Assembly: GCA_039030855.1 (NCBI GenBank)
Contig: JBCCDJ010000018.1
Location: 12,031-76,030 of the forward strand
Reading direction: 5' to 3'
DNA from: Pseudomonadota bacterium
Lineage (GTDB): Bacteria; Pseudomonadota; Alphaproteobacteria; Rhodobacterales; Rhodobacteraceae
Length of the DNA: 64,000 bases
The notes under the pieces were generated by a model. The model did not search any database. It worked only from the letters and a program-made list of their open reading frames with translations, and was not told where the DNA came from. Below, piece by piece: positions 2,211 through 20,003 of the stretch (position 1 is the first letter of the stretch; each line of letters opens with the position of its first letter). The position numbers and the translations under genes were made by a program.

Positions 2211-3938
2211 TCAGCCGTCGGACTGCAAGAGGCTTGCAATATCCTCGTGCCCGCCATCGCGTGCGTAATCGGCGATCGTGCGACCGGTGCCATCGGTAAT
2301 GTCAGGATCGGCCCCCGCTGCCAGCAACATCCGGGCGGCGTCGTCCCGCCCGTTGACTGCCGCAAACCACAAAGCTGTGGCCCAGTCGTTCACGTAGTCA
2401 TCCTGCGGTCCTGTCCTGATCGTGCGAAATCGCGCATTCACGAGTGCTGGATCGCGCGCCAGTGTCGTCCTCAGATGATCGACCTGTCCCATGGCGGCGG
2501 CGGCGAAGATGTCCATGGGCTGATCCATCAACAGGGCGACCGCTGCGTCCTGATGATTGTGCATGGCATGACCGATGGGTGGTGAGTGATATTCGGGATC
2601 GCGGATCGTTGTATCTGCCCCGGCATTGATCAGTGCGCGCATGATATCGATATGCCCCTTGAAGGCCGCAACATGCAGTGGCGTCCGCGTACCGCGCGGG
2701 CTCAGCTCAAACCCCAGATCGATCATGGTCTGAACGGCGGCCAGGTTCCCGTTTCCTGCGGCTTCGCGCAGAAGTTCGCTGTCCTTGTCGGGATCGACAC
2801 CCATATTTTTGGGTGCCAGCGCTTTCGCCACCTCTAGGTCGCAGCCCATGCAGGCAGCCTGAAACCGCTCCGCATCGCCAAGGGGGTCGGCCCGTCCGCC
2901 CCTCGTCTTGATCAGCGCGGCGATCTCGGGCATGCCGCGCATCAGTGCCACCTGATAGGGCGTGTAGCCAACCGTGTATGTCGGATAGTAATTCCTGTCA
3001 GGCGTATCGATATCGACCCCATGCTCGATCAACAATCGGGCGCGATCGGTAAAACCCCAGCGCATCGCCATGATCAGATGAAAATGCATCGTGCGGTGAT
3101 CCTGGGGGTTGCGATCCGGCTCCGTCAGCCACCAGTCGGATGGATCGCTGTCCTTCAATCCGTATTCCAGCATCAGTTGCAGATGCGTGTTGTCGGGACT
3201 GAAGCATCGGTTATAGGCCCCCTGGCTGTCGTTTGGATTGGCACCGGCATCAAGAAGAGCGCGGGCGAAGAGCACCATATCCGGATGGGGTGGCTGTCTG
3301 ACCAATCCGCCCTCACCGTTGCCGAAGACCCCGGTCAGAACCGTGAAGCGGTATGTTCCGCCCCACATGTAATGCGCGTTGGGATCTGCGCCAGCGTCCA
3401 ACAGCACCTTTGCAACCGCATATGTCGAAACGCCGGGCAGGCGGGCATAGGCTGCATACATCAGCGGCGTCCACTGGAAGGGGCCGCCCTTCTGGTCCAC
3501 TTCGCCCCTGGTGTTGATGAGCAGATGTCGAAGCGCCTCGATGTCTCCTGCTGCTGCGGCTGTGTGCAGGGTATGGTGAGCAATGTCCGGATGCGCGGCG
3601 AGCAGCGCGGCGGCCTGCTCGAGCTCTGCCGGACCGCGGTCGGGATCGGGGCCGTAATGGATGCAGGCAAGGTCCAGAAACCGGTTCGCCCGCTGTTCTG
3701 TCGTCTCTTCGGTCCCTGCATCGGATTCAACATGGCGTTTCAGCCGCGTCCAGCTGGAGAATCCGTAACCTCTGGCGATGACCAATTGCGCTTCTTGCAG
3801 GGAAATTTCGGCAGGATCGCCGAAATAGGGCCCGACCTGCGCCAACGCGTCGGGTTGGCGGGCCCTGGCGGCCTTGTGCAGGCGTTTGGCTTGTTTCTTC
3901 AGGTGCTCCAGCGAGGGGCGTGCGGGAAGGGGGGGCAT
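2211..3938 (-). CDS. Ankyrin-repeat protein with a helical N-terminal domain; function unknown
   Basis: 575-aa ORF. The ATG has AAGGAGG 5 nt upstream (reverse complement of 3944-3950). It has several ankyrin-like repeats (TPLMYAAY, LLDAGANPND, TPLHVAAFKGHIDIMRALINAGADT, ALWFAAVNGRDDAARMLLAAGADPD). No signal peptide. It is convergent with the TRAP gene. Confidence 0.8.
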   Translation of the reverse strand: MPPLPARPSLEHLKKQAKRLHKAARARQPDALAQVGPYFGDPAEISLQEAQLVIARGYGFSSWTRLKRHVESDAGTEETTEQRANRFLDLACIHYGPDPDRGPAELEQAAALLAAHPDIAHHTLHTAAAAGDIEALRHLLINTRGEVDQKGGPFQWTPLMYAAYARLPGVSTYAVAKVLLDAGADPNAHYMWGGTYRFTVLTGVFGNGEGGLVRQPPHPDMVLFARALLDAGANPNDSQGAYNRCFSPDNTHLQLMLEYGLKDSDPSDWWLTEPDRNPQDHRTMHFHLIMAMRWGFTDRARLLIEHGVDIDTPDRNYYPTYTVGYTPYQVALMRGMPEIAALIKTRGGRADPLGDAERFQAACMGCDLEVAKALAPKNMGVDPDKDSELLREAAGNGNLAAVQTMIDLGFELSPRGTRTPLHVAAFKGHIDIMRALINAGADTTIRDPEYHSPPIGHAMHNHQDAAVALLMDQPMDIFAAAAMGQVDHLRTTLARDPALVNARFRTIRTGPQDDYVNDWATALWFAAVNGRDDAARMLLAAGADPDITDGTGRTIADYARDGGHEDIASLLQSDG

Positions 3939-4925: not shown

Positions 4926-6047
4926 CTATTCCTCCAGAAGCTCGTTCTCGACCATCTTGATATCACCGTTGTCGCGTAGCCCGACGATCACCGCGACCAA
5001 ATCTGCTCGGGCGGCCTCCCCATCCTTTCGGGTTGGCTCTTCCATCGCACCGAGATCTTCGCGCAGCCGCTCCGACAGCCGCTTGGTCATGTTATTGAAG
5101 AAGAATTCTGTAACCTCCTCTCCATTCGTGCCGCCGAGTTTGAGTGCTGTAAGCAGGGCCGTTTCATCGATTTGTCGTGCAATCAATGCCGCGTCGCGGG
5201 GGTTCACGCGCTCAACGATATTGTCGAACGTGAACATGACCTGTTGCACCGATGTCGCCAGGCCGGGTGCCTTTTCTGTCAGATGAGCCATCAGTTCTGC
5301 GCGTATCTTGTCAGACACGTGGTTCATGACGGCGGCAATCAGATCAGCGGGGTCCTGGGTGCGCTCGGTATGGGCGACGGCGGGCAGGAACTCCTCTTCG
5401 ATCACCTTGGCGATTTGTGCGATGATCGTGTCGTCCGCGCTAGCGGCGTGTTCCATCCGCAGCACGATGCTTCGCGCCTCCAGCGGATCGTATTTCTCCA
5501 GAACCCGGGCCGCCTTGACCGAAGTCAGCTTGGAAAGCGCGATGGCAGCCACCTGTGGGTGTTCAGCCTGCAGCCAGGTGGCGATCCGACCGTCGTCGAC
5601 ATCTGCGAGAATGCTCCATACAGAGCGTCCGGCGTTGTCCACGTCTTCAAGGATCTGGTTGAGCTGTTCCTTGTCGACGACCTCGCTCAGGAATCGCTTC
5701 AGCTCCTCTCGCCCACCGCTGAGCGCCCCGGTTTGACTGAGTTGTGCAAGAAACTCGCTGATGACGTTTTCGACCACGCCCGGCTCGATCTCATTCATGC
5801 CGTTGACGATACCGGCAAACCGCCGGACCCGCCCAGCGCCGAGCGAGCGCAGCAGTTTTGAGGCCGGATTGGGGCCCAGCGCAATCAGCACGATCGACGC
5901 CTTCTCCGCTGTCGAAAGACTGGTTGGCGGGGCTGGCGGGATCTGGGGACCTGTAGCTGCAGGCAGGCTTGGCTCTTCAGGGATGATCAATGCGGTCGAC
6001 GGCTCGAAACCCGCAATATCGGCCGCGAAGGGTTCAGTAGCGTTCAT
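4926..6047 (-). CDS. fliG: Flagellar motor switch protein FliG
   Basis: 373 aa. The ATG overlaps the fliP stop (ATGA, 6044-6047). FliG-like blocks are EKASIVLIALGPNPASKLL, HPQVAAIALSKL and the C-terminal MTKRLSERLREDLGAMEEPTRKDGEAARADLVAVIVGLRDNGDI. It has a Pro-rich N-terminal extension of about 45 aa. Confidence 0.85.
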   Translation of the reverse strand: MNATEPFAADIAGFEPSTALIIPEEPSLPAATGPQIPPAPPTSLSTAEKASIVLIALGPNPASKLLRSLGAGRVRRFAGIVNGMNEIEPGVVENVISEFLAQLSQTGALSGGREELKRFLSEVVDKEQLNQILEDVDNAGRSVWSILADVDDGRIATWLQAEHPQVAAIALSKLTSVKAARVLEKYDPLEARSIVLRMEHAASADDTIIAQIAKVIEEEFLPAVAHTERTQDPADLIAAVMNHVSDKIRAELMAHLTEKAPGLATSVQQVMFTFDNIVERVNPRDAALIARQIDETALLTALKLGGTNGEEVTEFFFNNMTKRLSERLREDLGAMEEPTRKDGEAARADLVAVIVGLRDNGDIKMVENELLEE

Positions 6048-6862
6048 GTTCCATATCCTCTCACGAGTGCGCCGGCCAGCAATGTCCAGCCATCGGCCAG
6101 GACGAAGAAAGCGAGCTTGAAGGGAAGAGACACGATGGCGGGCGGGACCATCATCATGCCCATTGCCATCAGAATTGATGCGACCACAAGATCGATCACC
6201 AAGAAGGGGAGAAAGATCAGGAAGCCGACCTCGAAGCCGCGCTTGATCTCGCTCAAGAGGAAAGACGGGATCAGGAGCGACAATGGCGCGTCCCCCGCAC
6301 GGATCGCCTCCGGTGTCGCCAACGCGGTGTCGTCGGCAGTCGGCCGGTCTGCGGTGCCCGGCTGATCTGGCAAAGCGCGGCTGTTCGGGGCCGCTTCCTG
6401 CAATGCCTCTATGGTGGCGGGATTGGTGCGCCCTTCCATGAAAACGCGAAATGGCGCGAGTGTTTCGGTGAACGCCTCCTCCGCGGTGGCCTGACCCTCG
6501 ACCAGCGGAGAGATGCCTCTGTCCCAGGCTTCCTCGAATACCGGGGCCATGACGAAATAGGTCAGGAACAGCGCAAGGCTGACAATCATCATATTCGGTG
6601 GAGCCTGCTGTACGCCAACCGCCTGGCGCAGGATCGACAGAACCGTCACCATGAACGGAAAGCAGGTCACCATGATGGCGATACCGGGAGCGAGGCTCAG
6701 CACCGTCAACAAAGCGAATAACTGCACAATCTGCAAAGTGATCGCGCCTTCTCCACCAAGGTCGATGGAGATGTCCTGCGCGCTGGCCATTGTCGCGCTC
6801 AGCAATAGTGCGGCAAGGGGCAATAGCGCCTGCGCCATCCGGGATAAGGTCATGCGGCTCAC
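6044..6862 (-). CDS. fliP: Flagellar export apparatus protein FliP
   Basis: 272 aa with a signal peptide and the conserved FliP core (LLTVLSLAPGIAIMVTCFPFMVTVLSILRQAVGVQQAPPNMMIVSLALFLTYFVMAP; SEIKRGFEVGFLIFLPFLVIDLVVASILMAMGMMMVPP). The GTG start overlaps the fliN stop (GTGA). An alternative ATG lies at 6853. Confidence 0.9.
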   Translation of the reverse strand: MSRMTLSRMAQALLPLAALLLSATMASAQDISIDLGGEGAITLQIVQLFALLTVLSLAPGIAIMVTCFPFMVTVLSILRQAVGVQQAPPNMMIVSLALFLTYFVMAPVFEEAWDRGISPLVEGQATAEEAFTETLAPFRVFMEGRTNPATIEALQEAAPNSRALPDQPGTADRPTADDTALATPEAIRAGDAPLSLLIPSFLLSEIKRGFEVGFLIFLPFLVIDLVVASILMAMGMMMVPPAIVSLPFKLAFFVLADGWTLLAGALVRGYGT

Positions 6863-7332
6863 AGGGTTTGGGATAGATCGGCCACTTCGGTCAGGCGTAC
6901 GCCAAGGCGTCCCGTCCCTTCTTCGATCTCCTGCAACTCTCCTCGGGCGATGACCCGATCACCGATCATGATTTCAACCGGATCCGCGACATTCGTGTTT
7001 AACGTCAGCACACTATCGCGGCGCAGGTCGACCAGTTCGCTCAACAGGGGGCGGGCCTTGCCGACAGATACGATCACTTCGATCGGCACGCCCAGCACAG
7101 CCTTTCGCCTTGGGTTGCGCTGCGGTGCCTGAGTGGTGGCCGGCCTGCCGGTCTTTGGGTCGGCAACAGCGGTCATCTCGGGCGTTTCGGGTTGCGGCCC
7201 GGTCGGCACATCGGCCGCTGATCCGTCCGCTGCCGGCGTATCGAATTCGGCGTTGTCGAAGCTGGGCATGTCTTCCATGGGAGTGCCGAAATCAGGGATC
7301 TCTCCTTCGGGCGTCTGCTCGTCTTCAGTCAT
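6859..7332 (-). CDS. fliN: Flagellar motor switch protein FliN
   Basis: 157 aa. The N-terminus is acidic and Pro-rich. The C-terminal SpoA/FliN domain reads VLGVPIEVIVSVGKARPLLSELVDLRRDSVLTLNTNVADPVEIMIGDRVIARGELQEI. It overlaps the upstream gene by 8 nt. Confidence 0.85.
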   Translation of the reverse strand: MTEDEQTPEGEIPDFGTPMEDMPSFDNAEFDTPAADGSAADVPTGPQPETPEMTAVADPKTGRPATTQAPQRNPRRKAVLGVPIEVIVSVGKARPLLSELVDLRRDSVLTLNTNVADPVEIMIGDRVIARGELQEIEEGTGRLGVRLTEVADLSQTL

Positions 7333-8008
7333 GGGTCAACTCCTGGTTCGATTCCGTTGGTTCAAAGAGGGGAGCAAGGCTTCCGGTATTGACCGAGACG
7401 CCGCCGCCGAGATGGGTTGCCAGAACGGCGCGCGCGTTCGTGATCGCGGTGCTGAGGTCGATGGCGTCGAGGCCATCGCGCCAATGGATATGTGCTTCGG
7501 TATCGGTGAGATCTCCATCAGGCTCGATCCGGCAAGGCAGATTCCTGTCTTGGAGCTGCGCAGCTATCTCGGCTGCCCAATCAGGGCTGACCTCAACAAC
7601 CAATGTGGAATCGGGTGCTGATTTCATGGCCTCGGCCAGTGTCGCGGCGATTTCATCCACAAGCGCGGTGCGGGCGAAATGAGGTGCAATCGCGTCCAAA
7701 AAAACACTGACAATCTTATGTACCTGATTTGCCATCGTCTCGGTGAGCGCGCTGTGATCAGCCTGCGCGATCTCGATGGTTGCCGCGAGCGATGTGATGC
7801 GGCTCTCAAGATCCCGGGCGATTCGGCTTTCGGTCTGGGCGACACCGTCGGCGAAGCCTTCCGCGCGCGCCGCGCCGCGCGCCGTTGCGATCAGGAGAGA
7901 CAGTTCCTCGTCGCGCTGCGCACCGGTTTGGGGATCGCCTGATCCGGACTGCGATGGCACCGCGCGATCTTTGGAGAATTCTGGCAACGCGATTGAACGA
8001 CCGGTCAT
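7325..8008 (-). CDS. fliH: FliH-like flagellar assembly protein (tentative)
   Basis: 227 aa, wedged between fliF and fliN with 4-nt and 8-nt overlaps. It has a charged helical N-half and a C-half compatible with FliH-type ATPase regulators. The call rests mostly on position and composition. Confidence 0.5.
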   Translation of the reverse strand: MTGRSIALPEFSKDRAVPSQSGSGDPQTGAQRDEELSLLIATARGAARAEGFADGVAQTESRIARDLESRITSLAATIEIAQADHSALTETMANQVHKIVSVFLDAIAPHFARTALVDEIAATLAEAMKSAPDSTLVVEVSPDWAAEIAAQLQDRNLPCRIEPDGDLTDTEAHIHWRDGLDAIDLSTAITNARAVLATHLGGGVSVNTGSLAPLFEPTESNQELTHD

Positions 8009-9660
8009 GCAGCCTGCTCCTTGTCCGCAGGCTCATCAAGCCAGGAGCTCAGAAGTTTCGTCGCCTCATCCGGTTTCTCGGCAACCGTCGTCTCAAGCAG
8101 TGCGCGCTGGTCGACGTCGAGCGCCTGAGCGTCGATCATGTCACCGGAGGGGATGTCAAACCCCTGTCCGGCAGGCATGTCGGAGAAGAACCCGCCACCC
8201 ATCTCGCCGCCCGTACCGCCAGTGCTGCCGGCAAAGCCGCCGTCGCCAATTTCTGTCGGCATTGCAAAGTCCTGGCCGCCCGCCGGGCCTGCAACCGACA
8301 GGATGGGACGCACAACGAAGAGTCCGAGCATCAACGCGACCATGCCGAGGGTCAGCAACTGTATGATCGACATCGCGTTATCGCCGAGTATGTCCATCAC
8401 GCTGGACGTGGCGACGCTGCCCTGACCGCCGACATCGCTGAATTGCAGCGACTGGATCGTCACAACGTCTCCGCGTGCCTCGTCATATCCGACAGCGCTC
8501 TTCACCAGATCGCCGAGGGCGTTTAGCTCTTCTTCCGGGCGCGGCTCCCAAATCATGGTGCCGGTGCCGTCATCGGTACGAATACCATCGACCATAACCG
8601 CGACGCTGATCTTGCGAATCTCGCCTGCCGGGCGAATGCGTTCGCTTACGGTTTCGGAGATCTCGTAATTGATTCGCTCTCTGGTCCGTGATGCCTGGCG
8701 GCTCGACTGGTCGCCGCCCTCGACATCACCGTCTGCAAGGTTCGATGCGACCGTCACGCCCGTCGCCTCGCCTTCTGCCGCATCGGTACTTTCTTCGGTA
8801 TCGGTGTGGATGACGATTCGGCTTTCCGGATCGAGCCGTCTTTCGCGAATGGTCTCACTGTCGCGGGCGGCATCGACGGCGACCTCCACGATCGCCGCGC
8901 CTGCACCCACGCGCGCTTCGAGGAGGCGCATTACATTGCGGCGCAGGGCCTCGGTCTGGGTTGCTGCTTCTTCCGCCGCTCCGGCCTTTGTTTCGGTCTC
9001 GCCGGACCTGAGAATCACGCCGTTTTCCTGGTCGATGACAGCTACATTATGCAGCGACAGGCCGGATACAGCGGATGCGACCAGAAACCTGATTGCCTCA
9101 GCCTGATTGCGGCTCAGCGCACCGCTGGATGTTGAAACCGTGACCGAAGCGGTGACCGGTGCGTTGGCTTCGAACGGACGGCGTGTTGTCTGTGCGATAT
9201 GGACGCGTGCGCGGATAACCCGGGGTGACGCAAGCACTGTGCGCGCCAACTCTCCCTCCTTCGCCCGCCAGTAGGCCGCATCGAACATTTCTGCCGTGGT
9301 GCCAAAGCCGGAGAGGCCGTCCAACAGCTCATATCCTGCTGCACCGGCGGCCGGCAGCCCTTCACCCGCGAGTGTGATTCGCACTCGGTCGCGCACATCA
9401 GCGGGCACATATATTGCGTCGCCGCGTACTTCATATTGGACGGCCTGGCGATCAAGGCCCTCGATGACGCCGCTGGCCGCGGACGAATCAAGCCCTGAAT
9501 AGAGGAGTGCCATCGTCGGTGTCGCAACAATACGTGCGAAAAGGGCGAGGGCCGCGATCATTGCCGCAAGGCCGAGGACGAGCATTGCTTTGCGCCGCGG
9601 TTCTGCGGCGTTCCACGCCATGCTGAGCTTCGAAGTTACCGTGTTCACATCATTGACCAT
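8005..9660 (-). CDS. fliF: Flagellar MS-ring protein FliF
   Basis: 551 aa from the ATG at 9660; the ORF track starts two codons earlier at TTG 9666. It has the FliF/YscJ pattern LLYSGLDSSAASGVIEGLDRQAVQYEVRGDAIYVPADVRDRVRITLAGEGLP and N- and C-proximal TM helices. Its stop overlaps the fliH-like start (ATGA). Confidence 0.9.
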   Translation of the reverse strand: MVNDVNTVTSKLSMAWNAAEPRRKAMLVLGLAAMIAALALFARIVATPTMALLYSGLDSSAASGVIEGLDRQAVQYEVRGDAIYVPADVRDRVRITLAGEGLPAAGAAGYELLDGLSGFGTTAEMFDAAYWRAKEGELARTVLASPRVIRARVHIAQTTRRPFEANAPVTASVTVSTSSGALSRNQAEAIRFLVASAVSGLSLHNVAVIDQENGVILRSGETETKAGAAEEAATQTEALRRNVMRLLEARVGAGAAIVEVAVDAARDSETIRERRLDPESRIVIHTDTEESTDAAEGEATGVTVASNLADGDVEGGDQSSRQASRTRERINYEISETVSERIRPAGEIRKISVAVMVDGIRTDDGTGTMIWEPRPEEELNALGDLVKSAVGYDEARGDVVTIQSLQFSDVGGQGSVATSSVMDILGDNAMSIIQLLTLGMVALMLGLFVVRPILSVAGPAGGQDFAMPTEIGDGGFAGSTGGTGGEMGGGFFSDMPAGQGFDIPSGDMIDAQALDVDQRALLETTVAEKPDEATKLLSSWLDEPADKEQAA

Positions 9661-9707
9661 GTTCAACCCGCCTTTCTGGCGACGAGGTCAATCTGCGTCG
9701 ACGGCAA

Positions 9708-9722
9708 TTAATTTAAGGTTAG
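9708..9722. promoter_or_regulatory. CtrA-box-like element TTAA-N7-TTAG in the fliF/fliL divergent promoter region
   Basis: ttaa tttaagg ttag lies centrally in the 105-bp AT-richer spacer between fliF (ATG 9660) and fliL (ATG 9766). The alphaproteobacterial CtrA consensus is TTAA-N7-TTAAC. This is a single near-match found by eye. Confidence 0.3.
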
Positions 9723-9765: not shown

Positions 9766-10284
9766 ATGGACATGGTTGACGTGACAGACGACATGGCGGA
9801 CGACGACAGCGCGCCCAAGAAGGGATCGCGCAAACTTCTCTTGATCGTCCTTGTGCTGAGCCTCCTGCTTGGTGGTGGTGGCTTTTTCGCCGCGTTTTCA
9901 GGGCTTGCGCCGAAACCTGGCTTCCTTGGCGGTGAGGCGGGCGATACCGCCGGCAAAACTCCCGTTGCCGCACCTGTCGATCAGGGAATCGCTTTCATGC
10001 CCCTGGGGCAGATCGTGATTCCCCTAAGCCCACGCGCGCGCGCCAAGCATCTGCTGCTGGAGGCTGAGCTGGAGGTCAACAAGGGTGATCTTTCGGCGGT
10101 AGAACAGATGCGACCGCGCATCCTCGACATGATTAACACATATCTCCGTGCAATCGATGAATCTGACCTCGATGACCCCAGCGCCGTCATCAGGCTGCGC
10201 GCACAATTGCTGCGCAGGGCCAGCGTCGTTGTCGCTCCCGCGCGCCCGCGTGATCTGCTGATCACCTCGTTTATCCTGAAATAG
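9766..10284 (+). CDS. fliL: Flagellar basal-body-associated protein FliL
   Basis: 172 aa. It has one N-terminal TM helix (LLLIVLVLSLLLGGGGFFAAF) and a FliL-type domain (FMPLGQIVIPLS, LLLEAELEV, MRPRILDMINTYLR). It is the first gene of the plus-strand flagellar operon. Confidence 0.8.
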   Translation: MDMVDVTDDMADDDSAPKKGSRKLLLIVLVLSLLLGGGGFFAAFSGLAPKPGFLGGEAGDTAGKTPVAAPVDQGIAFMPLGQIVIPLSPRARAKHLLLEAELEVNKGDLSAVEQMRPRILDMINTYLRAIDESDLDDPSAVIRLRAQLLRRASVVVAPARPRDLLITSFILK

Positions 10285-10293
10285 GAGATAGCA

Positions 10294-11016
10294 ATGGAAC
10301 TGATCTCTGACGGCCTTCTCATTCTCGCCGCTGTGACGGCATCTCTGTACTGCCTCGTTCTCTCTCGGCGTCTGCGGCGTCTGAGCCAGATGGATGGCGG
10401 GCTTGGCCAGATGATCGGCCAGCTATCGGCCCAAGTCGACGAAATGCAGGCGGCTCTTGGTGCCATGAAAAAAACGACCGAAGCATCCGCTGTTAGCCTG
10501 ACCAAACAGACGCGGGAAGCGGATGGCACGTTGCATGACATGCGGCTCATGGCGCGGAAGACGACGGACGCCGCGAGCGAGGCAAAGGCCCAGCGGACCC
10601 TGCTCGCCACTGTCATGGCGGATTGCGCAGATATGATTGCGGAACTCGCGAGCCAGAAAAACATCAACAATTTTATTGGCCCGCAGCTACCGGCAGCGCT
10701 GCCCGGAGAGCCGGTCGCAAATATAGCTACAGAGACTGCAATTGACCTTTCATCGGCGCAGGATCGCGAGACATCGCCATTTTCGACAACTGCCACAGAG
10801 CCTGCAACCTCATCTCCGCCCACCGACCGCTCTGGCGACGCAGTCACCGAAAAGGCGGCGAAGCCGCCGCAGATCGCAAAACGCAATCTGGAGGTCCCGG
10901 AAGCTGTTGGTGCCGTGCTCGCTGCCGGGCGTACCGAAGATGATGAAGCATTCGCACGCCGTCTGATCGACGCGCTGGCAGCTACCGAGCCCGACTTTGG
11001 CGGAGCGCCTGCATGA
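10294..11016 (+). CDS. Hypothetical membrane-anchored coiled-coil protein in the flagellar operon
   Basis: 240 aa. AGGAG lies 6 nt upstream of the ATG. The gene starts 9 nt after the fliL stop, and its own stop is overlapped (ATGA) by the next gene. It has an N-terminal TM helix (LLILAAVTASLYCLVL), a charged helical segment, and a Pro/Ala/Thr/Ser-rich tail. I recognise no family. Confidence 0.6.
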   Translation: MELISDGLLILAAVTASLYCLVLSRRLRRLSQMDGGLGQMIGQLSAQVDEMQAALGAMKKTTEASAVSLTKQTREADGTLHDMRLMARKTTDAASEAKAQRTLLATVMADCADMIAELASQKNINNFIGPQLPAALPGEPVANIATETAIDLSSAQDRETSPFSTTATEPATSSPPTDRSGDAVTEKAAKPPQIAKRNLEVPEAVGAVLAAGRTEDDEAFARRLIDALAATEPDFGGAPA

Positions 11017-11600
11017 AATCCCATCGGCGAAATCGCAAACCGCCCGCGATGGCGTTGCTGGCTGCGCTCTTCATGTCCTCGGCAGTCATCCGGGCGATCG
11101 ACCCCGCGATCGCGTTGGCTGTCGAGGTGCCCGGTCTGGCCGAGGGTGATGCCCGTGTCGAGGAAGCGAGGGTAGCCGATGAATTCAGTTATTCCGATCT
11201 GGATGGACTGCTGAAGACGATCCGTCAGCGCGAAGCGCAGCTGAATGAGCGCGATGCCAAAGTGGCAGAAAAAGAGAACCTGATGCGTGCTGCGGAGCAG
11301 AAATTGAGAGATCAGCTGGCCCGCCTCGAGGAGGCGGAAAGCAGGCTGGGATCGCTGCTGAGGCTGGCCGACCAGGCGGCTGACAAGGATGTCGACAAGC
11401 TGGTCACTACATTTCAGAGCATGGACGACAAGAAGGCCGGCCCCATTTTCGAGAATATGGACGTCCCGTTTGCGGCGGGTCTGATTTCTCGTATGGACGG
11501 TGTTGCCGCAGCCAATATCCTTTCTGTTCTGACCCCCGCCAAGGCCTATGCAATCACCGTGCATATTGCGGGCCAGAACGCGCAGGTTCCGCGCGAATGA
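11013..11600 (+). CDS. MotE/FlbB-like flagellar protein (MgtE_N-like C-terminal region)
   Basis: 195 aa. It has an N-terminal signal/TM segment and a coiled coil (REAQLNERDAKVAEKENLMRAAEQKLRDQLARLEEAESRL). The C-terminal block is VTTFQSMDDKKAGPIFENMDVPFAAGLISRMDGVAAANILSVLTPAKAYAI, as in MotE/FlbB-type proteins. Confidence 0.55.
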   Translation: MKSHRRNRKPPAMALLAALFMSSAVIRAIDPAIALAVEVPGLAEGDARVEEARVADEFSYSDLDGLLKTIRQREAQLNERDAKVAEKENLMRAAEQKLRDQLARLEEAESRLGSLLRLADQAADKDVDKLVTTFQSMDDKKAGPIFENMDVPFAAGLISRMDGVAAANILSVLTPAKAYAITVHIAGQNAQVPRE

Positions 11601-11696: not shown

Positions 11697-11713
11697 ACTA
11701 TCCAGGAGGCGAC

Positions 11714-12580
11714 ATGGTCGGGATCATAGGCATTCTCATCACTTTCGTGATGGTCTTCGGGGGGTATCTCATCGCCGGCGGCAAGATGAAAATCATCCTC
11801 GGCTCTCTCCCTTACGAGATGATGATGATCGGCGGTGCAGCCTGTGGTGCTTTCATCCTTGGCAACAGCATCCCTGAGATCAAACACACGCTCAAGGACC
11901 TCGGCAAGGTCTTCAAGGGACCAAGATGGAAGGACGAGGATTACCGCGATCTTCTGTGCCTCCTGTTCTCCTTGATCCGCATCGGTCGCGCCAATCCGAT
12001 GGATATCGAGACACATATCGAGGATCCGGAGAACAGCCCGGTTTTCCAGAACTACCCGAAGATACTGAATGATCGCATGACGGTCGACCTGATCTGCGAC
12101 ACGATCAGGGCAGGTTCGATGAACTATGACGATCCGCACCAGGTGGAGGAAATTCTCGAAAAGCGGATCGAGGCTGCCCTGCACCACAACTTGCATTCCA
12201 GCCATGCCTTGCAGACGATGGCGGACGGCTTGCCAGCGCTCGGGATCGTCGCGGCGGTCTTGGGTGTGATCAAGACAATGGGCTCCATTGATCAGCCTCC
12301 CGAAGTTCTCGGCAAACTGATCGGCGGCGCGCTTGTCGGAACCTTTCTGGGCGTCTTCCTTGCCTACGGTATTGTCGGCCCATTTGCCAACAAGGTGAAG
12401 GCTGTCATCGAGCAGGATCACAAGTTCTATTGGCTGATCCGCGAAGTGCTTGTTGCGAATCTGCATAATCACTCGCCGGATCTCTGCGTCGAAGTCGGAC
12501 GGCAGAATGCGCCGGGTGATATGCGCCCCAGCTTCAGCGAGCTCAGCGATGCATTGCAGGCCGTAAAGGCAACAGCATGA
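11714..12580 (+). CDS. motA: Flagellar stator protein MotA
   Basis: 288 aa from ATG 11714, preceded by AGGAGG. It has the MotA/TolQ/ExbB pattern (MVGIIGILITFVMVFGGYLIAGGKMKII; LPALGIVAAVLGVIKTMGSI; GALVGTFLGVFLAYGIVGP). The ORF-track start at 11630 was rejected. Confidence 0.9.
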   Translation: MVGIIGILITFVMVFGGYLIAGGKMKIILGSLPYEMMMIGGAACGAFILGNSIPEIKHTLKDLGKVFKGPRWKDEDYRDLLCLLFSLIRIGRANPMDIETHIEDPENSPVFQNYPKILNDRMTVDLICDTIRAGSMNYDDPHQVEEILEKRIEAALHHNLHSSHALQTMADGLPALGIVAAVLGVIKTMGSIDQPPEVLGKLIGGALVGTFLGVFLAYGIVGPFANKVKAVIEQDHKFYWLIREVLVANLHNHSPDLCVEVGRQNAPGDMRPSFSELSDALQAVKATA

Positions 12581-15138
12581 TCTGGACACGTGGCATATGG
12601 GCGAGCGCGGCGCCGGCACTCATCTTTACTGCTTGGTCAGTGTCGGCTGCGGACCTCAATGTGCAGGCTTCAGATATCCGAGGTGGCAGCCGGGTGGATA
12701 TTGCGCTCGGCGCAACACCGTTCTCCGTTTCATCCGCAGGCAGCCGCGCTATCGATGTCATTGCGCCGGACCGGTCTGTGGGATTTGACATCGGTCAGAT
12801 CACGCGTGGGCAGTTTGCCTCTCGCATCGAGACTGCGCGCGTTTCGCAAACCGATGAGGGTACAAGGCTTCGCCTGCTTCTCAATTGCGAATGCAGCTAC
12901 GCCACTCTCGTGACGAACGGAACACTGTCGATCGAAATCAGGGACCCGGGACCAGGCGACGCGCAAACAGACCTGACCGAAGAGATCGTTCAACGGACAG
13001 ATGCAGCATCTCGGCGCTTTCGCTCTGCATTTGCGCCGGGGCGGGCACCTGCTCCGCGCGCGCGCCAAACAGCGATCGCCGATCTCGGACTTCAGACTGG
13101 TGCCGAGGGTGATACGAATGGCGCGTCGCCGGTAGCGCAGATCGGCACGCCGTTTGGTGAGCAGGACCGCGACGGTACCCGCGGCGCGAGGGCCGAGGAA
13201 ATCCGACTGGCGCGGCTGCGACTGGTGGAGCAACTCGCCAAAGCGGCAGAGCAGGGGCTGCTCGATTTCGCGACGGCTGAAAGCGCGGAGCTTTTCGCGC
13301 AAACCACGCCGACCGAATTCCCCCCCGACGAAATCAATGAAGAGCCGGTTGACCAGCCCATCGCAGAGGCGGCTCCGAGACCGCCCGCGCGCAAGACACT
13401 GGTCGTCGAGCCTGATCCCGAGCGTCTCGTTCCCGGTGATGAGACACTGCTCGTCGAGCTTCCGCTTCGTGCGCGGACCGCCCGTGATCGGGTGTTCCGC
13501 CGTGACCGGCTGGAGACACTGATCCCGTCGCATGAATGCATCGACGATCATCAGTTCACCCTTTTGCGGCTGGACAACGACAGGGGCTTCGCCGACCTTG
13601 TGACTGATCATGGCGGCCAGTTGATCAGTCGCTTCGATGAGCCCGACCCCGCCGCAGTAGAGAAACTGGCGCGCCTCTATCTCAGTTTCGGCTTTGGTGT
13701 GGAGGCCAGGCAACTACTCGATACGCTGGGCGACAATGTCGAGAATCGCGCACTTCTTTCTGACATTGCGATGATCATCGAAAATGAAACACCATCCGTT
13801 ACCGGGCCAATCGCACGAAATGGTCACTGTTCGGCGCTGGCGCTGCTCTGGTTTACCCTTGCAGGGTTTCAGATGGAGAATGGCAGCATCGAAAGGCTGA
13901 CCGCCGCTGGTCGGCAATTGATCAGCCGCGAAGAGCGCAATCGCGAGATCCTCGCCCAATTCGTCGATCAGACACCGGTTTTGCGTCGTCTTCTCGGCCC
14001 CAAGCTCATGGGTCGCGGTCTTGATGCAGGTGATATCGAACTCGCCGAGAGCGTCGACAAGATCATGCGCCGCATGGTTGATGCGAACAGCCCAAAGCTT
14101 GAACTCGCGCGCGCGCGTCTTCTCGCCGAGGGTGGAAATGTCGCATCCGCCGAAGCTGTCTACAAACGGCTTGCCCTCATGTCTGTTCCGGAGGCGCAGA
14201 AGGCGCTGCTGTTGCTTCTGGAAAGTCAGGTGGACCGGGGGGCCGCACCGTCGGTCGCTTTGGCGGATGCACTTTCTGATGCCGCACTGATCGCGCGCGG
14301 TAGTCCTTTTGAGCGGCGCCTGAAGGTTGCGGAAATCCGGGCGCGTGCCATCGCAGAAGGTTTGCAATCGGCGCTGGATCAGGTGGACCGGGCGATCAGA
14401 CGGAACCCGGCCAATCGAGCGCTCCTAGTGGATAGCGCGCATGCGGTCTTCGAGGATGCGGTTGCCGACCCTGAACAGCCGCTTCTTTTCGCGCGGGCCG
14501 TTCTTGATCAAAGCGACCTCATCTCGCCCGCGGCGGATGGTGATCTGGCCCGCAGTCGTGTGGCAGAGCAGTTGATCGCCATCGGTCTTGCGAATGCGGC
14601 ACTCGATATTCTGACCCCGGCCGCAGGACGCAAGACGGCATCGCTGCGGCAGGTTGCAGCCACCGCCCATGTGGCCCTCGGTGATGGTGCATCCGCCCTG
14701 TCGGCTCTTGATGGCATCGAAAGTCCTCGGGCCTCCTCTCTGCGTACGGCTGCTTATCTGCTGGTTGACCAGCCGAACGACGCTTTGGCAGCTGCAGCGC
14801 AGGATACGGAACTTGCGAGCGAAGCCCGGGCAAAGCTGGCATTGCTTGCCGGCGACTGGCGCGGTGCCTCGGAGGCGGGCAGCACAGCTGATCGGTTGCT
14901 CGCGGCCTACATGGCCGAAGCAGGAGACGCACAACAGTCGGGCGAAACATCTGGTCCATCGGCCGGCGCAGGCGCGCGTCTTGTGTCAGAGCTTGAGCGC
15001 GACGCGCCGGTTCCAACCTCCGCCATGCTGCGGCCGCCATCGGTCGGCGATGCGCTGACGCTGAATGACGCTCAGGCGGTCATGGATGCGTCCCAAACTG
15101 TACGTGATCTCGTCAAGGAGATGTTGGAAGATGGATAA
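12577..15138 (+). CDS. Large secreted hypothetical protein (AMIN-like N-domain, charged linker, helical-repeat C-region) embedded in the flagellar operon
   Basis: 853 aa. The ATG overlaps the motA stop (ATGA). Its stop overlaps the flgF start by 8 nt. It has a signal-peptide-like N-terminus (MIWTRGIWASAAPALIFTAWSVSA). Domain assignments are from pattern only, not from an HMM. Confidence 0.75.
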   Translation: MIWTRGIWASAAPALIFTAWSVSAADLNVQASDIRGGSRVDIALGATPFSVSSAGSRAIDVIAPDRSVGFDIGQITRGQFASRIETARVSQTDEGTRLRLLLNCECSYATLVTNGTLSIEIRDPGPGDAQTDLTEEIVQRTDAASRRFRSAFAPGRAPAPRARQTAIADLGLQTGAEGDTNGASPVAQIGTPFGEQDRDGTRGARAEEIRLARLRLVEQLAKAAEQGLLDFATAESAELFAQTTPTEFPPDEINEEPVDQPIAEAAPRPPARKTLVVEPDPERLVPGDETLLVELPLRARTARDRVFRRDRLETLIPSHECIDDHQFTLLRLDNDRGFADLVTDHGGQLISRFDEPDPAAVEKLARLYLSFGFGVEARQLLDTLGDNVENRALLSDIAMIIENETPSVTGPIARNGHCSALALLWFTLAGFQMENGSIERLTAAGRQLISREERNREILAQFVDQTPVLRRLLGPKLMGRGLDAGDIELAESVDKIMRRMVDANSPKLELARARLLAEGGNVASAEAVYKRLALMSVPEAQKALLLLLESQVDRGAAPSVALADALSDAALIARGSPFERRLKVAEIRARAIAEGLQSALDQVDRAIRRNPANRALLVDSAHAVFEDAVADPEQPLLFARAVLDQSDLISPAADGDLARSRVAEQLIAIGLANAALDILTPAAGRKTASLRQVAATAHVALGDGASALSALDGIESPRASSLRTAAYLLVDQPNDALAAAAQDTELASEARAKLALLAGDWRGASEAGSTADRLLAAYMAEAGDAQQSGETSGPSAGAGARLVSELERDAPVPTSAMLRPPSVGDALTLNDAQAVMDASQTVRDLVKEMLEDG

Positions 15139-15853
15139 TGCAGGTTATGTCGCGCTGTCGCGTCAGGTGGGCCTGGCCAAGGACATGCGCATCATCGCGA
15201 ACAACATCGCCAACATGTCCAGCGACGGATTTCGGCGAGAGAGCGCGGTCTTCACGGAGATCGTTGACAATCTCGGTGTGGCTGGTGGCTCCCTGTCTCA
15301 GACCGCATCACGGGTTCGCACAACCGACTTCTCACTGGGCGGGCTTAGGTCAACGGGCGGTGAGTTCGACTTTGCCATTGAGGGAGAAGGCTTCTTTCGC
15401 ATTGAAACCGCCGAAGGTGAGGCGCTGACACGAAACGGCAGCTTCGCTCGCTCGGCCGATGGCGAACTGGTGACCGCATCGGGTCGTCGGGTCCTCGGTG
15501 CCGGCGGTGTTCCTCTTTTCTTTCCCGCAGATGCAACAGCGATCAATGTCGGTGCCGACGGGATCATCTCCGCGGACGGTCAGCCTGTCGGTCAGCTTGA
15601 AATCGTGACCGTGGAAGACCTTTCGGACCTGCGCCGTCGCGAAGATGGCCTTTTTGAGACCGATCAGCCATCGATCCCGGCGATCGAAGCTTCGCTTCGC
15701 CACGGTTTCGTCGAGCGCAGCAATGTCGATCCGGTGCGGGAAATGACCCGCATGATCGAGGTCCAGCGCGCTTATGAAATGGGACAGTCGTTCCTCGAAA
15801 CCGAAGATGAACGGATCCGGCAGGCCGTGCGGATCATGGGTGCGGGCTCATGA
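15131..15853 (+). CDS. flgF: Flagellar basal-body rod protein FlgF
   Basis: 240 aa from ATG 15131. It has the rod-protein termini MDNAGYVALSRQVGLAKDMRIIANNIANMSSDGFRRE and VERSNVDPVREMTRMIEVQRAYEM. The track start at 15065 was rejected. Confidence 0.85.
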   Translation: MDNAGYVALSRQVGLAKDMRIIANNIANMSSDGFRRESAVFTEIVDNLGVAGGSLSQTASRVRTTDFSLGGLRSTGGEFDFAIEGEGFFRIETAEGEALTRNGSFARSADGELVTASGRRVLGAGGVPLFFPADATAINVGADGIISADGQPVGQLEIVTVEDLSDLRRREDGLFETDQPSIPAIEASLRHGFVERSNVDPVREMTRMIEVQRAYEMGQSFLETEDERIRQAVRIMGAGS

Positions 15854-17947: not shown

Positions 17948-18487
17948 ATGAAAAAGATTCTGATCTTTCTGCTTGTGCCTCTCTTTGCGGTCGGAGGTGC
18001 GGGCGCGGGTTTCATGCTGAAGCCACCGGTCGAGATGGAGATGGAGGAGCCGTCCGATGATGACGCGCCCGCCAAAGCCGTCGCCGAGATGAATGACCTC
18101 TCCGCGCAAGGGGAGCCGGCGCAGCCACAGATGGTCTCACCGCCGCTGGCTTCGGGACCGCCTGAAGTAGATTACGTGAAGCTCGACAAACAATTCGTCG
18201 TGCCGCTCGTCGACGAAAACCGCGTTGGCGGGTTGATGATCATCACCATGGCGCTGGAAACGGAGCCCGGCGCGACCGATCTGGTTTTCGCACATGAACC
18301 AAAGCTGCGGGATGAGTTTCTGCAGGTGCTTTTCACCCATGCGCAGTCGGGGGGGTTCTCCGGATCTTTCACAGACCTCAAGTCGATGGAGGATCTGAGA
18401 TTGGCACTAAACGCCACAGCAAGATCTGTTCTGGGCGATGTCTTTCGTTCGGTGCTTCTGACCAACATGATCCGCCAGGACCTTTGA
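17948..18487 (+). CDS. Second FliL-family basal-body-associated protein
   Basis: 179 aa with an N-terminal TM helix (ILIFLLVPLFAVGGAGAGFML). The FliL-like pattern is VDYVKLDKQFVVPLVDENRVGGLMIITMALE and EPKLRDEFLQVLF. It is the last gene of the plus-strand operon. Confidence 0.7.
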   Translation: MKKILIFLLVPLFAVGGAGAGFMLKPPVEMEMEEPSDDDAPAKAVAEMNDLSAQGEPAQPQMVSPPLASGPPEVDYVKLDKQFVVPLVDENRVGGLMIITMALETEPGATDLVFAHEPKLRDEFLQVLFTHAQSGGFSGSFTDLKSMEDLRLALNATARSVLGDVFRSVLLTNMIRQDL

Positions 18488-18878: not shown

Positions 18879-20003
18879 TCAGAGAGCCTCGGTCGTGACG
18901 AATGTTGCCAATTCTCCCGCGCCCAATCCGAGCGACATGCCGCAGGAGACGCCAGGTACAACTGCGGTGTCGTAAATTTCGGCGACTGCTCCATCGATGC
19001 GAAACCATTCAGCGACCGAACCGGTTGAGAGGTTGATAATCTGTACGCCAGTCCAGGGTTCGCTGTCGGCGGCGATCAGGCGATCATCAAGCGCAAGCCC
19101 CTCGAACCTCTTGTATCTCGGGCGGGACAGACCGATGATCGCGTGGCCATCAATGAATGACAGGCCGCGCACAAATCCCGGGCAAAAGGCGATGACCGAT
19201 TTCTCGCCTGTCTTTCGGTCGACCTGCATCAACTCGCCCGTACCCGAATTCAGGACATAGAGATTGCCTTTGTAGATCTGGGGCGAGTGGGGCATCGACA
19301 GGCCGTCGGCCAGAACCTCGTTCGACTTTACGTCAACGATAACACCTCCGTCCGCGCGCCTGTCACGCCATCCGTCGATCGTGTCTGATCGCGACACGGC
19401 GGTGACATAAGCGGGTTCTCCATCCTCCATCGCAAGGCCGTTCAGATGGCAGCGATCCTCTGCGATGATCTTCGAGATGAAAGGAGGTTTCCAAATCGGT
19501 TTGAAATTGTGGGTGGCTGACAGCCGGGCAACGCAATTGTACTTGGTGACGACGAAAATCGGCTCACCCGCCTTGTCGAGGCCGACATCGTGCGCGTCGA
19601 CAGCGCCGATGATATTAACCCGGCGGGGGACAAAGCACGCATCATAAATTTCATTGGCGCGTTCGGTGCCGCTGAGCACCGAGGCCATCTCGACCAGCGC
19701 CGTTTGGGTGACGAGGAATATGCGTTTGCCGTTCACGGCGATCCCCATAGCGTGCTGATAAAGCCGCTCATCGACAAGCAATCCGCCTTTGGGATTGCGG
19801 CCGATCAGATAGAATTTCCCTGACTGGTAGGATGACAAAGCCAGCGATGTGTCATGCGCCGTAAGCCAGCCCACGAGCCCGCCCGACATCGAATAGGTGA
19901 CTGTTTGCGACGTCGCGATATCGTCCTGAGCGGGCGCGGTGGCCGTGTCGACTGCATCCGTAGCTTTTCCATCCGCTGCGGTTGCCTTCTTCTTGTGCGC
20001 CAT
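18879..20003 (-). CDS. TIGR03032/DUF4915 family protein; function unknown
   Basis: 374 aa. I recognise this family's conserved blocks: FKPIWKPPFISKIIAEDRCHLNGLAMEDGEPAYVTAVSRSDTIDGWRDRRADGG, GLSMPHSPQIYKGNLYVLNSGTGEL and FVRGLSF. The N-terminal tail of about 35 aa is Ala/Thr/Asp-rich. Confidence 0.8.
   Translation of the reverse strand: MAHKKKATAADGKATDAVDTATAPAQDDIATSQTVTYSMSGGLVGWLTAHDTSLALSSYQSGKFYLIGRNPKGGLLVDERLYQHAMGIAVNGKRIFLVTQTALVEMASVLSGTERANEIYDACFVPRRVNIIGAVDAHDVGLDKAGEPIFVVTKYNCVARLSATHNFKPIWKPPFISKIIAEDRCHLNGLAMEDGEPAYVTAVSRSDTIDGWRDRRADGGVIVDVKSNEVLADGLSMPHSPQIYKGNLYVLNSGTGELMQVDRKTGEKSVIAFCPGFVRGLSFIDGHAIIGLSRPRYKRFEGLALDDRLIAADSEPWTGVQIINLSTGSVAEWFRIDGAVAEIYDTAVVPGVSCGMSLGLGAGELATFVTTEAL

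Follow-up and report, generated by a model that had tools for sequence, protein, structure and literature searches.

The locus examined here lies in a window of 64,000 nucleotides (64 kb; contig JBCCDJ010000018.1 of GenBank assembly GCA_039030855.1, Rhodobacteraceae), in which a large gene stands between the stator gene motA and the rod gene flgF of a flagellar cluster. The question raised by this locus was which part of the flagellar motor, if any, is encoded by this gene. The original prediction, made from the sequence alone, had described its product as an uncharacterised periplasmic scaffold of the motor or stator. On sequence evidence, the product belongs to the MotK family, as a divergent member; the gene is real, but the motor component that it encodes is of a known kind. 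The epithet "uncharacterised" was therefore not upheld, since a confident match was found to MotK, which was characterised in 2024 (PMC10954123), and its counterpart CP4 was described in 2025 (PMC12363192).

Homology of the post-motA protein to MotK

The predicted open reading frame (ORF) of 853 amino acids was borne out by the ORF check (Table 1), and the overlaps predicted with both neighbours were found on the sequence as well. The start codon ATG (12577-12579) overlaps the motA stop codon TGA (12578-12580) by 4 nt (ATGA), and the stop codon TAA (15136-15138) lies within ATGGATAA, which forms an 8-nt overlap with flgF. The flgF start, ATG at 15131, was supported by the NCBIfam alignment, in which FlgF aligned from residue 1. 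These overlaps with both neighbours implied translational coupling. In the public annotation (AAF367_15540) the protein is 100% identical and listed with 825 amino acids from a GTG at 12661, a start that is 28 codons short and at which the signal peptide is lost; all homologues aligned with the form beginning at ATG 12577. A chance ORF in GC-rich DNA was ruled out by the full-length homologues and by the confident fold.

MotK (RSP_1318/RSWS8N_12065, UniProt Q3IY86) was reported as a component of the Fla2 flagellum of Cereibacter sphaeroides (Velez-Gonzalez et al. 2024, PLoS One, PMC10954123). It contains 652 amino acids, with a 24-residue signal peptide, an AMIN-like domain at residues 23-119 for which AmiC (4BIN) was the best template, disordered regions rich in Pro and a helical C-terminal part resembling tetratricopeptide repeats (TPR), and its gene follows motA2 in the order fliL-pflI-motE-motA-motK (PMC10954123). 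Such architectural resemblance was merely a lead, so homology was tested directly. The published primer table of PMC10954123 was adopted as the source of C. sphaeroides sequence. Two of the primers overlap and, read together, give the N-terminus of mature MotK, AEAAVRTGEHPGF, which agreed with the first strand of the family consensus. An exact scan of genome contigs with primer FW-1318 gave 0 matches, and a wobble-degenerate scan of genome contigs with the motA2 primer retrieved 44 Rhodobacterales loci, including those of C. johrii, C. azotoformans, C. ovatus and C. changlensis. C. sphaeroides was not among the retrieved loci, and MotK of C. sphaeroides 2.4.1/WS8N was represented by that of C. 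johrii, the closest relative of this species. The C. johrii locus (L005) fitted the published MotK, MotA2 and MotE primers with 0-1 mismatches, and the 651-amino-acid ORF after its motA was accordingly identified as the MotK orthologue.

Two hidden Markov models (HMMs) were used for the comparison, A1 made from six sequences (the window protein and the five relatives nearest to it), and A2 made from 105 family members with 768 positions. The C. johrii MotK orthologue matched A1 with E=6e-55 (Z=1e6) and A2 with E=1e-117, and it was colinear with the A2 profile over positions 1-621 and 721-766. In the direct BLASTP comparison, the window protein and C. johrii MotK shared 31% identity over 356 amino acids (E=1e-21). 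Besides sequence homology (via C. johrii), the window protein and MotK of C. sphaeroides have in common the gene position after motA, the signal peptide (predicted for the window protein), the AMIN-like domain, the linker, the TPR-like domain and the C-terminal helix. They differ in length (853 amino acids in the window and 651-652 in Cereibacter); in the region of the last TPR repeats, the Cereibacter proteins lack about 100 positions of the profile. The first strand is also divergent and lacks the GEH motif in the window protein, and the next gene is flgF instead of sltF-flhA.

As the 44 loci were anchored on motA and not on motK, the gene next to motA could be assessed in them without bias. 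In 42 of the 44 loci, the next gene overlapped the motA stop codon by 1-4 nt or started within 2 nt of it, and encoded a protein with a signal peptide. These 42 proteins usually begin with a strand of the form xGEHxxF(S/T)R, and 41 of them matched the family HMM. The order fliP-fliN-fliF / fliL-pflI-motE-motA-motK was common to the window and the Rhodobacterales loci, and motE homologues were detected upstream of motA in these loci by tblastn. Differently, the motK-flgF junction was confined to two loci, that of the window and that of the closest relative, P0002 (52% identity, with the same 8-nt overlap), whereas an SLT-domain gene (sltF) and flhA follow motK in C. johrii, Thalassovita, Litoreibacter and a metagenomic relative (P0005). 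The coupling of motK to flgF is a lineage-specific rearrangement. Of the earlier statement that the gene was locked between motA and flgF, the motA side was thus extended to 42 loci, and the flgF side was restricted to the window and P0002.

A bystander, namely a periplasmic TPR protein that happens to lie in a flagellar cluster, or a mis-called FliK, MotC or MotB-like protein, was also weighed at this point, since TPR proteins are ubiquitous and no family of the Pfam and NCBIfam libraries matched the window protein at E<=0.1. The same scans included the FliK, MotB/OmpA and MotC models, and by them a mis-called FliK, MotC, MotB/OmpA or rod/hook protein was rejected, in agreement with the original prediction, which had recognised no FliK-, MotC- or MotB/OmpA-type features. 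Moreover, the gene overlaps both neighbours, its position after motA was kept in 42 of the 44 loci, and its homology to MotK was strong. Owing to the conserved position, the MotK homology and the absence of an alternative profile match, such a bystander is so improbable that it was excluded.

Domain architecture and conserved residues

The N-terminus of the window protein contains one Arg, a hydrophobic core and the sequence SVSA/A, and signal-peptide-like N-termini aligned in all homologues. With this predicted Sec signal peptide, the protein looks like one exported to the periplasm. In the AlphaFold2 (AF2) models, both of the full-length protein and of the separate domain, residues 26-122 formed an eight-strand beta-sandwich, and the domain model of residues 24-128, generated from 37 aligned sequences, reached a predicted local distance difference test score (pLDDT) of 94.1 and a predicted template modelling score (pTM) of 0.86. 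The best match of this domain in the PDB by Foldseek was the AMIN domain of E. coli AmiC (4BIN; template modelling score (TM) 0.65, root mean square deviation (RMSD) 3.9 A), followed by a second AMIN match, the AMIN/B2 part of PilQ (4AQZ, TM 0.65), and the remaining Foldseek matches were alpha-crystallin sandwiches with RMSD of about 4-15 A. No match of the window protein to Pfam AMIN (PF11741) was obtained at E<=0.1, and the Pfam AMIN-like family PF24837 matched marginally in just 2 of 58 family members (E ~0.003). The models therefore supported the description of this domain as AMIN-like by fold, not by sequence.

The following region of residues 126-320 was rich in Ala, Arg, Glu and Pro, and residues 126-205 and 245-318 were predicted to be disordered (pLDDT <50). 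Between them, a helix spanned residues 199-228 in the AF2 model. Its motif LxxQLxRAAxQGL was among the most conserved stretches of the family, with L216, A223, A224, Q226 and G227 conserved in at least 90% of the 105 family members, and the helix was also present in C. johrii MotK. Residues from about 321 to 790 were modelled as about 30 stacked helices arranged as hairpins (pLDDT 85-90), which matched TPR superhelices such as APC/C subunits, OGT and IFIT by Foldseek. The TPR-clan profiles of Pfam gave no match to the window protein itself, while among 58 family members TPR_19 was detected in 17 (best E 8e-10) and TPR_14 in 13. In searches of PDB sequences, the family profile gave weak matches to coatomer epsilon, MamA and one Sel1 protein, and phmmer with the window protein gave no matches. 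The C-terminal helix was kept in C. johrii MotK too (HMM positions 721-766).

Compared with the layout drawn by the original prediction, the cleavable signal peptide (as a predicted feature) and the stacked, TPR-like helical repeats of the C-terminal part were recovered. The AMIN-like domain, placed at about residues 25-125, was recovered as an eight-strand fold with the AMIN domains of AmiC and PilQ as best matches, and not as a Pfam AMIN match. For the charged linker, placed at about residues 130-290, composition and disorder were confirmed over residues 126-320, but its conserved helix had been overlooked.

The alignment of the family also revealed a number of conserved residues. The motif C104-x-C106 in the AMIN-like domain was near-invariant (97% of the 105 family members). 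In the TPR-like domain, C321, E376, C418 and R499 were invariant, the motifs GEFDxPD and LARLYxxxGFGAEA were conserved, and R39 and R83 were further invariant or near-invariant positions. The four conserved cysteines would fit an oxidising periplasmic compartment. The TPR-like domain and the C-terminal helix were conserved as well as the AMIN-like domain. The linker helix, the C-x-C motif and C321/C418 are family-wide features that are not described in the MotK or PflA literature examined. The AMIN domains of AmiC and PilQ resemble the N-terminal domain of the window protein in fold, and the near-invariant C-x-C is particular to the MotK family. Peptidoglycan binding by the AMIN-like domain is presumed, as a prediction.

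Proposed role in the flagellar motor and alternative explanations

The window protein is, with high probability, the MotK/PflA-type spoke of this motor, whose TPR arm would span the distance from the MotE ring to the stators, whose AMIN-like domain would reach the peptidoglycan or the stator periphery, and by which stators would be recruited or kept active. The evidence for such a role came mainly from C. sphaeroides, where MotK was protease-sensitive in spheroplasts, which located it in the periplasm, and where the motK mutant was flagellated, exported the hook protein normally and was paralysed (PMC10954123). MotK bound MotE in far-western and pull-down assays, and both MotK and MotE were concluded to interact with MotB2 (PMC10954123). 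MotE was unstable without MotK, and a MotK-sfGFP fusion formed a polar focus which was colocalised with the hook and needed MotA2 and MotB2 (PMC10954123). The earlier view of a PflA-like periplasmic scaffold of the motor or stator, with a MotE-like partner encoded upstream, matched what has been shown or proposed for homologous MotK, so that the function is assigned by homology.

A second relative with a phenotype is CP4 of Phaeobacter inhibens (PGA1_c35690, DSM 17395), for which six transposon mutants were immotile and were complemented, and in which flagellin and hook proteins were still exported (PMC12363192). The gene order reported there is motA-CP4-sltF-flhA-fliR-flhB (PMC12363192). Like the MotK genes of C. 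johrii, Thalassovita and P0005, the CP4 gene lies after motA and before sltF-flhA, and it is required for swimming. CP4 is the positional equivalent of MotK, by synteny and by related Roseobacteraceae proteins that matched the family HMM; PMC12363192 itself draws no link to MotK.

The export data of P. inhibens bear on another explanation, in which the main task of the MotK homologue would lie in building the flagellum or exporting its proteins. It would then act as a periplasmic chaperone for parts of the rod, ring or stator, or as a platform for their assembly, and would not be a stable structural part of the rotating motor. The set of flagellar proteins secreted by the CP4 mutant was reduced (PMC12363192), a hint of some role in assembly; MotE of Sinorhizobium meliloti entered the literature as a chaperone of the TPR protein MotC, and in the window motK is translationally coupled to the rod gene flgF. 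However, the C. sphaeroides motK mutant built its flagellum with normal export of hook protein and failed to rotate it, the focus of MotK-sfGFP at the hook depended on MotA2/MotB2, and the flgF junction was lineage-specific. A role mainly in assembly was thus judged unlikely, and the MotK/PflA-type spoke was kept as the favoured explanation.

The spoke itself is modelled on PflA of Campylobacter jejuni and Helicobacter pylori, in which a flexible loop lies between an AMIN-like sandwich and 16-17 TPR repeats, and which forms 17 spokes from a ring to the stators (PMC12222027, PMC12054838, PMC11870540). Based on predicted structures, three groups independently proposed in 2025-2026 that MotK equals PflA and MotE equals FlgY (PMC12054838, PMC11870540, PMC13023049). 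The window protein resembles PflA in the succession of beta-sandwich, linker and repeats, with about 30 helices in residues 321-790 compared with about 16-17 TPR repeats in PflA. The best PDB match of its full-length model by Foldseek was likewise a chain of the C. jejuni periplasmic scaffold, though with the low TM given below. Both PflA and MotK are periplasmic, are needed for rotation and not for assembly, and are paired with an E-ring protein of the FlgY/MotE type. A difference lies in the linker, which wraps PflB in the case of PflA, whereas no PflB-like gene was found among the flagellar genes of the window. The homology of PflA and MotK accordingly stands as a proposal drawn from structural models.

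These differences from PflA would also suit a stator activator anchored to peptidoglycan, acting through the AMIN-like domain and MotB in the manner of MotY or FlgT, with no spoke to the MotE ring and with a merely convergent likeness to PflA. The AMIN-like fold was the best structural match of the protein, the original MotK model proposes peptidoglycan binding (PMC10954123), the cluster is devoid of a PflB-like gene, and sequence similarity to PflA or PflB was absent, with no PflA or PflB chain at E<=1 in the search of PDB sequences with the family profile. The structural similarity to the C. jejuni scaffold was likewise low, as described below. But MotE is a binding partner of MotK in vitro and depends on it for stability in vivo, the TPR domain and the C-terminal helix were as conserved as the AMIN-like domain, and the equation with PflA was reached by three groups. 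An activator that forms no spoke was considered very unlikely, even less probable than the assembly role.

Other periplasmic TPR-rich partners of MotE/FlbB-type proteins are CC_2058 of Caulobacter crescentus, MotC of S. meliloti and FlcA/FlcB of Borrelia. CC_2058 has an AMIN-like N-terminal domain and a reported Mot- phenotype, and BLAST similarity to MotK was reported to be absent. MotC, compared here by description, has no AMIN domain, and no MotC-type NCBIfam match was obtained for the window protein.

In the proposed mechanism, the window MotK would be exported by the Sec pathway and, once in the periplasm, become a scaffold of the motor that is associated with the stators. It would connect the MotE ring with the MotA/MotB stators through its TPR arm and would also contact the periplasmic part of MotB, and the AMIN-like beta-sandwich, carried on the flexible linker, may reach the peptidoglycan or the rim of the stators. 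Together with MotE, it would recruit MotA/MotB units or keep them active and anchored to peptidoglycan. Without MotK, a flagellum would be built that does not rotate.

Several points limit the spoke model or weigh against it, in addition to the reduced export of the CP4 mutant. Homology, the order motE-motA-motK and the AMIN-like and TPR folds were obtained from the present data, while the function in the window organism is transferred from relatives and the geometry of the spoke from the analogy with PflA. The link to C. sphaeroides MotK was made with C. johrii as a proxy, because C. sphaeroides was absent from the 44 loci, and at about 31% identity to Cereibacter MotK the BLASTP signal was confined to the helical domain. 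The top Foldseek match of the full-length model was chain 9hmf_K of the C. jejuni periplasmic scaffold (9HMF; E=3.2e-5), with a TM of just 0.16, which could reflect generic TPR similarity; this chain of 773 residues would fit PflA residues 16-788. The first beta-strand of the window protein reads ASDIRGGSRVD (residues 29-41), compared with RxGEHxxFSRxV in the family, and three positions conserved in at least 90% of members are substituted (W332L, E352R and P466T). These differences set the window protein and its nearest relatives apart as a subclade of their own, in which motK is joined to flgF. Finally, MotE of the window contains no cysteine, in contrast to MotE of C. sphaeroides (Cys20) and S. 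meliloti (Cys53), in which the lone cysteine forms the disulfide of the dimer and is needed, Cys20 for stability. The details of the MotE-MotK module may therefore differ in this organism.

Gene neighbourhood, annotation of the family and significance

The positions of the motK-family gene, its parts and the neighbouring flagellar genes are listed in Table 1.

Table 1. Coordinates of the motK-family gene, its domains and the flanking flagellar genes in the 64-kb window.
Feature	Position	Strand	Evidence or remark
fliG, fliP, fliN, fliH, fliF	4926-9666	-	Divergent flagellar genes
fliL, first gene of fliL-pflI-motE-motA-motK operon	9766..10284	+	Pfam FliL E=4.6e-10
pflI-like gene (DUF6468)	10294..11016	+	Pfam DUF6468 E=4e-5, just below cut-off
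motE (FlgY/FlbB-like E-ring candidate)	11013..11600	+	NCBIfam collar_FlbB E=2.4e-8, Pfam MgtE_N 2.7e-4, both below cut-offs
motA, stator, probable start ATG 11711	11711..12580	+	TIGR03818 MotA1 E=2.5e-106
motK-family gene	12577..15138	+	ORF of 853 aa including signal peptide; HMM and BLASTP match to C. johrii MotK orthologue
Sec-type signal peptide (predicted), residues 1-24, MIWTRGIWASAAPALIFTAWSVSA/A	12577..12648	+	Read from sequence; aligned in homologues
AMIN-like beta-sandwich, residues 25-125	12649..12951	+	AF2 domain model and Foldseek
Pro/Ala/Glu/Arg linker, mostly disordered, residues 126-320	12952..13536	+	pLDDT <50; low alignment occupancy and conservation
Conserved linker helix segment, residues 215-230, RLVEQLAKAAEQGLLD	13219..13266	+	Conservation and AF2
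TPR-like helical repeat domain, residues 321-790	13537..14946	+	AF2, Foldseek and Pfam on relatives
Conserved C-terminal helix, residues 823-852	15043..15132	+	Helical in AF2; family-wide conservation
flgF	15131..15853	+	NCBIfam PRK12690 E=1.2e-90; 8-nt overlap with motK stop
flgG, flgA, flgH, fliL-like gene after flgF	to 18487	+	

The longest ORF of motA starts at TTG 11630 and encodes 316 amino acids. The model aligned from residue 29 and the homologues contain 288-289 amino acids, so the start is probably ATG 11711. The pflI-like gene occupies the same position as pflI of C. sphaeroides and is kept across the Rhodobacterales loci. A second fliL-like gene (17948-18487; Pfam FliL E=9.4e-7, no NCBIfam match) ends the flgF-flgG-flgA-flgH block, which gives a flagellar cluster with two fliL paralogues. 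In a scan of the larger ORFs over the first 52 kb or so of the window, neither motB nor motC was present, which is in line with the earlier remark that both are missing from it.

Two kinds of atypical loci were observed in the motA-anchored set. In a Sulfitobacter metagenome-assembled genome (L016), no MotK-like gene followed the matched motA, which may be a second, orphan copy of the kind reported in P. inhibens. In two Thalassococcus loci (L007 and L027), the post-motA protein contained 539 amino acids with a weak family match (E ~1e-25), and flgF/flgG, not motE, lay upstream.

Fla2-type clusters are under the control of CtrA in C. sphaeroides and P. inhibens. No perfect CtrA box (TTAA-N7-TTAA) was found in the 64-kb window. 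The sequence TTAATTTAAGGTTAG at 9708-9722, in the 99-bp divergent intergenic region of fliF/fliL, is a CtrA-type box with one mismatch; as two such one-mismatch sites were found in 64 kb compared with 1.8 expected by chance, its position alone is suggestive. Directly after the flagellar cluster, a gene for a DUF4915 protein (18879-20003, - strand, E=8e-117) is convergent with the fliL-like gene, and beyond 18.5 kb the scanned ORFs were housekeeping genes. On the other side, about 1 kb from fliG, lies a gene for a 575-amino-acid ankyrin-repeat protein (2211-3938, - strand, Ank_2 E=1.5e-34), unusual in a bacterial genome and with no evident link to the flagellar genes.

GlnD of the window was closest to that of Pikeienuella (73-76% identity; Rhodobacterales, family Paracoccaceae), and this placement is within the taxonomic range already reported for MotK-like proteins (PMC10954123). 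By an exhaustive profile search with a threshold of E<=1e-3, the family was found to comprise 3,255 clusters at 50% identity, each counted by its representative protein; 2,160 of them remained at E<=1e-30. Most were full-length matches of 750-900 amino acids. By comparison, a word-indexed protein search gave 5 matches when the window protein alone was the query and 9 when the profile of 105 members was used, the four added ones being unrelated TPR proteins. The word-indexed search is weak on this family because its prefilter is swamped by Ala-rich words. As no Pfam or NCBIfam model covers the MotK family and word searches are nearly blind to it, its members are labelled "hypothetical protein" almost everywhere.

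The biological gain of placing this protein in the MotK family is small, since publications of 2024-2026 had already covered the component and its mutant phenotype, the proteins with which it interacts and its likely correspondence to the PflA spokes. The practical value lies in annotation: the gap touches thousands of genomes, and the alignment and motifs could seed a curated model. For mutation, the C-x-C motif, C321/C418, E376, R499 and the linker helix are the residues singled out. As a tentative and rather doubtful suggestion, the linker helix might be the alphaproteobacterial substitute for the PflB-wrapping loop of PflA, perhaps as a docking motif that clamps the periplasmic domain of MotB or the coiled coil of MotE, with disulfides of the conserved cysteines rigidifying the spoke. 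If this were true, the family would define how a motor without PflB builds its stator cage.

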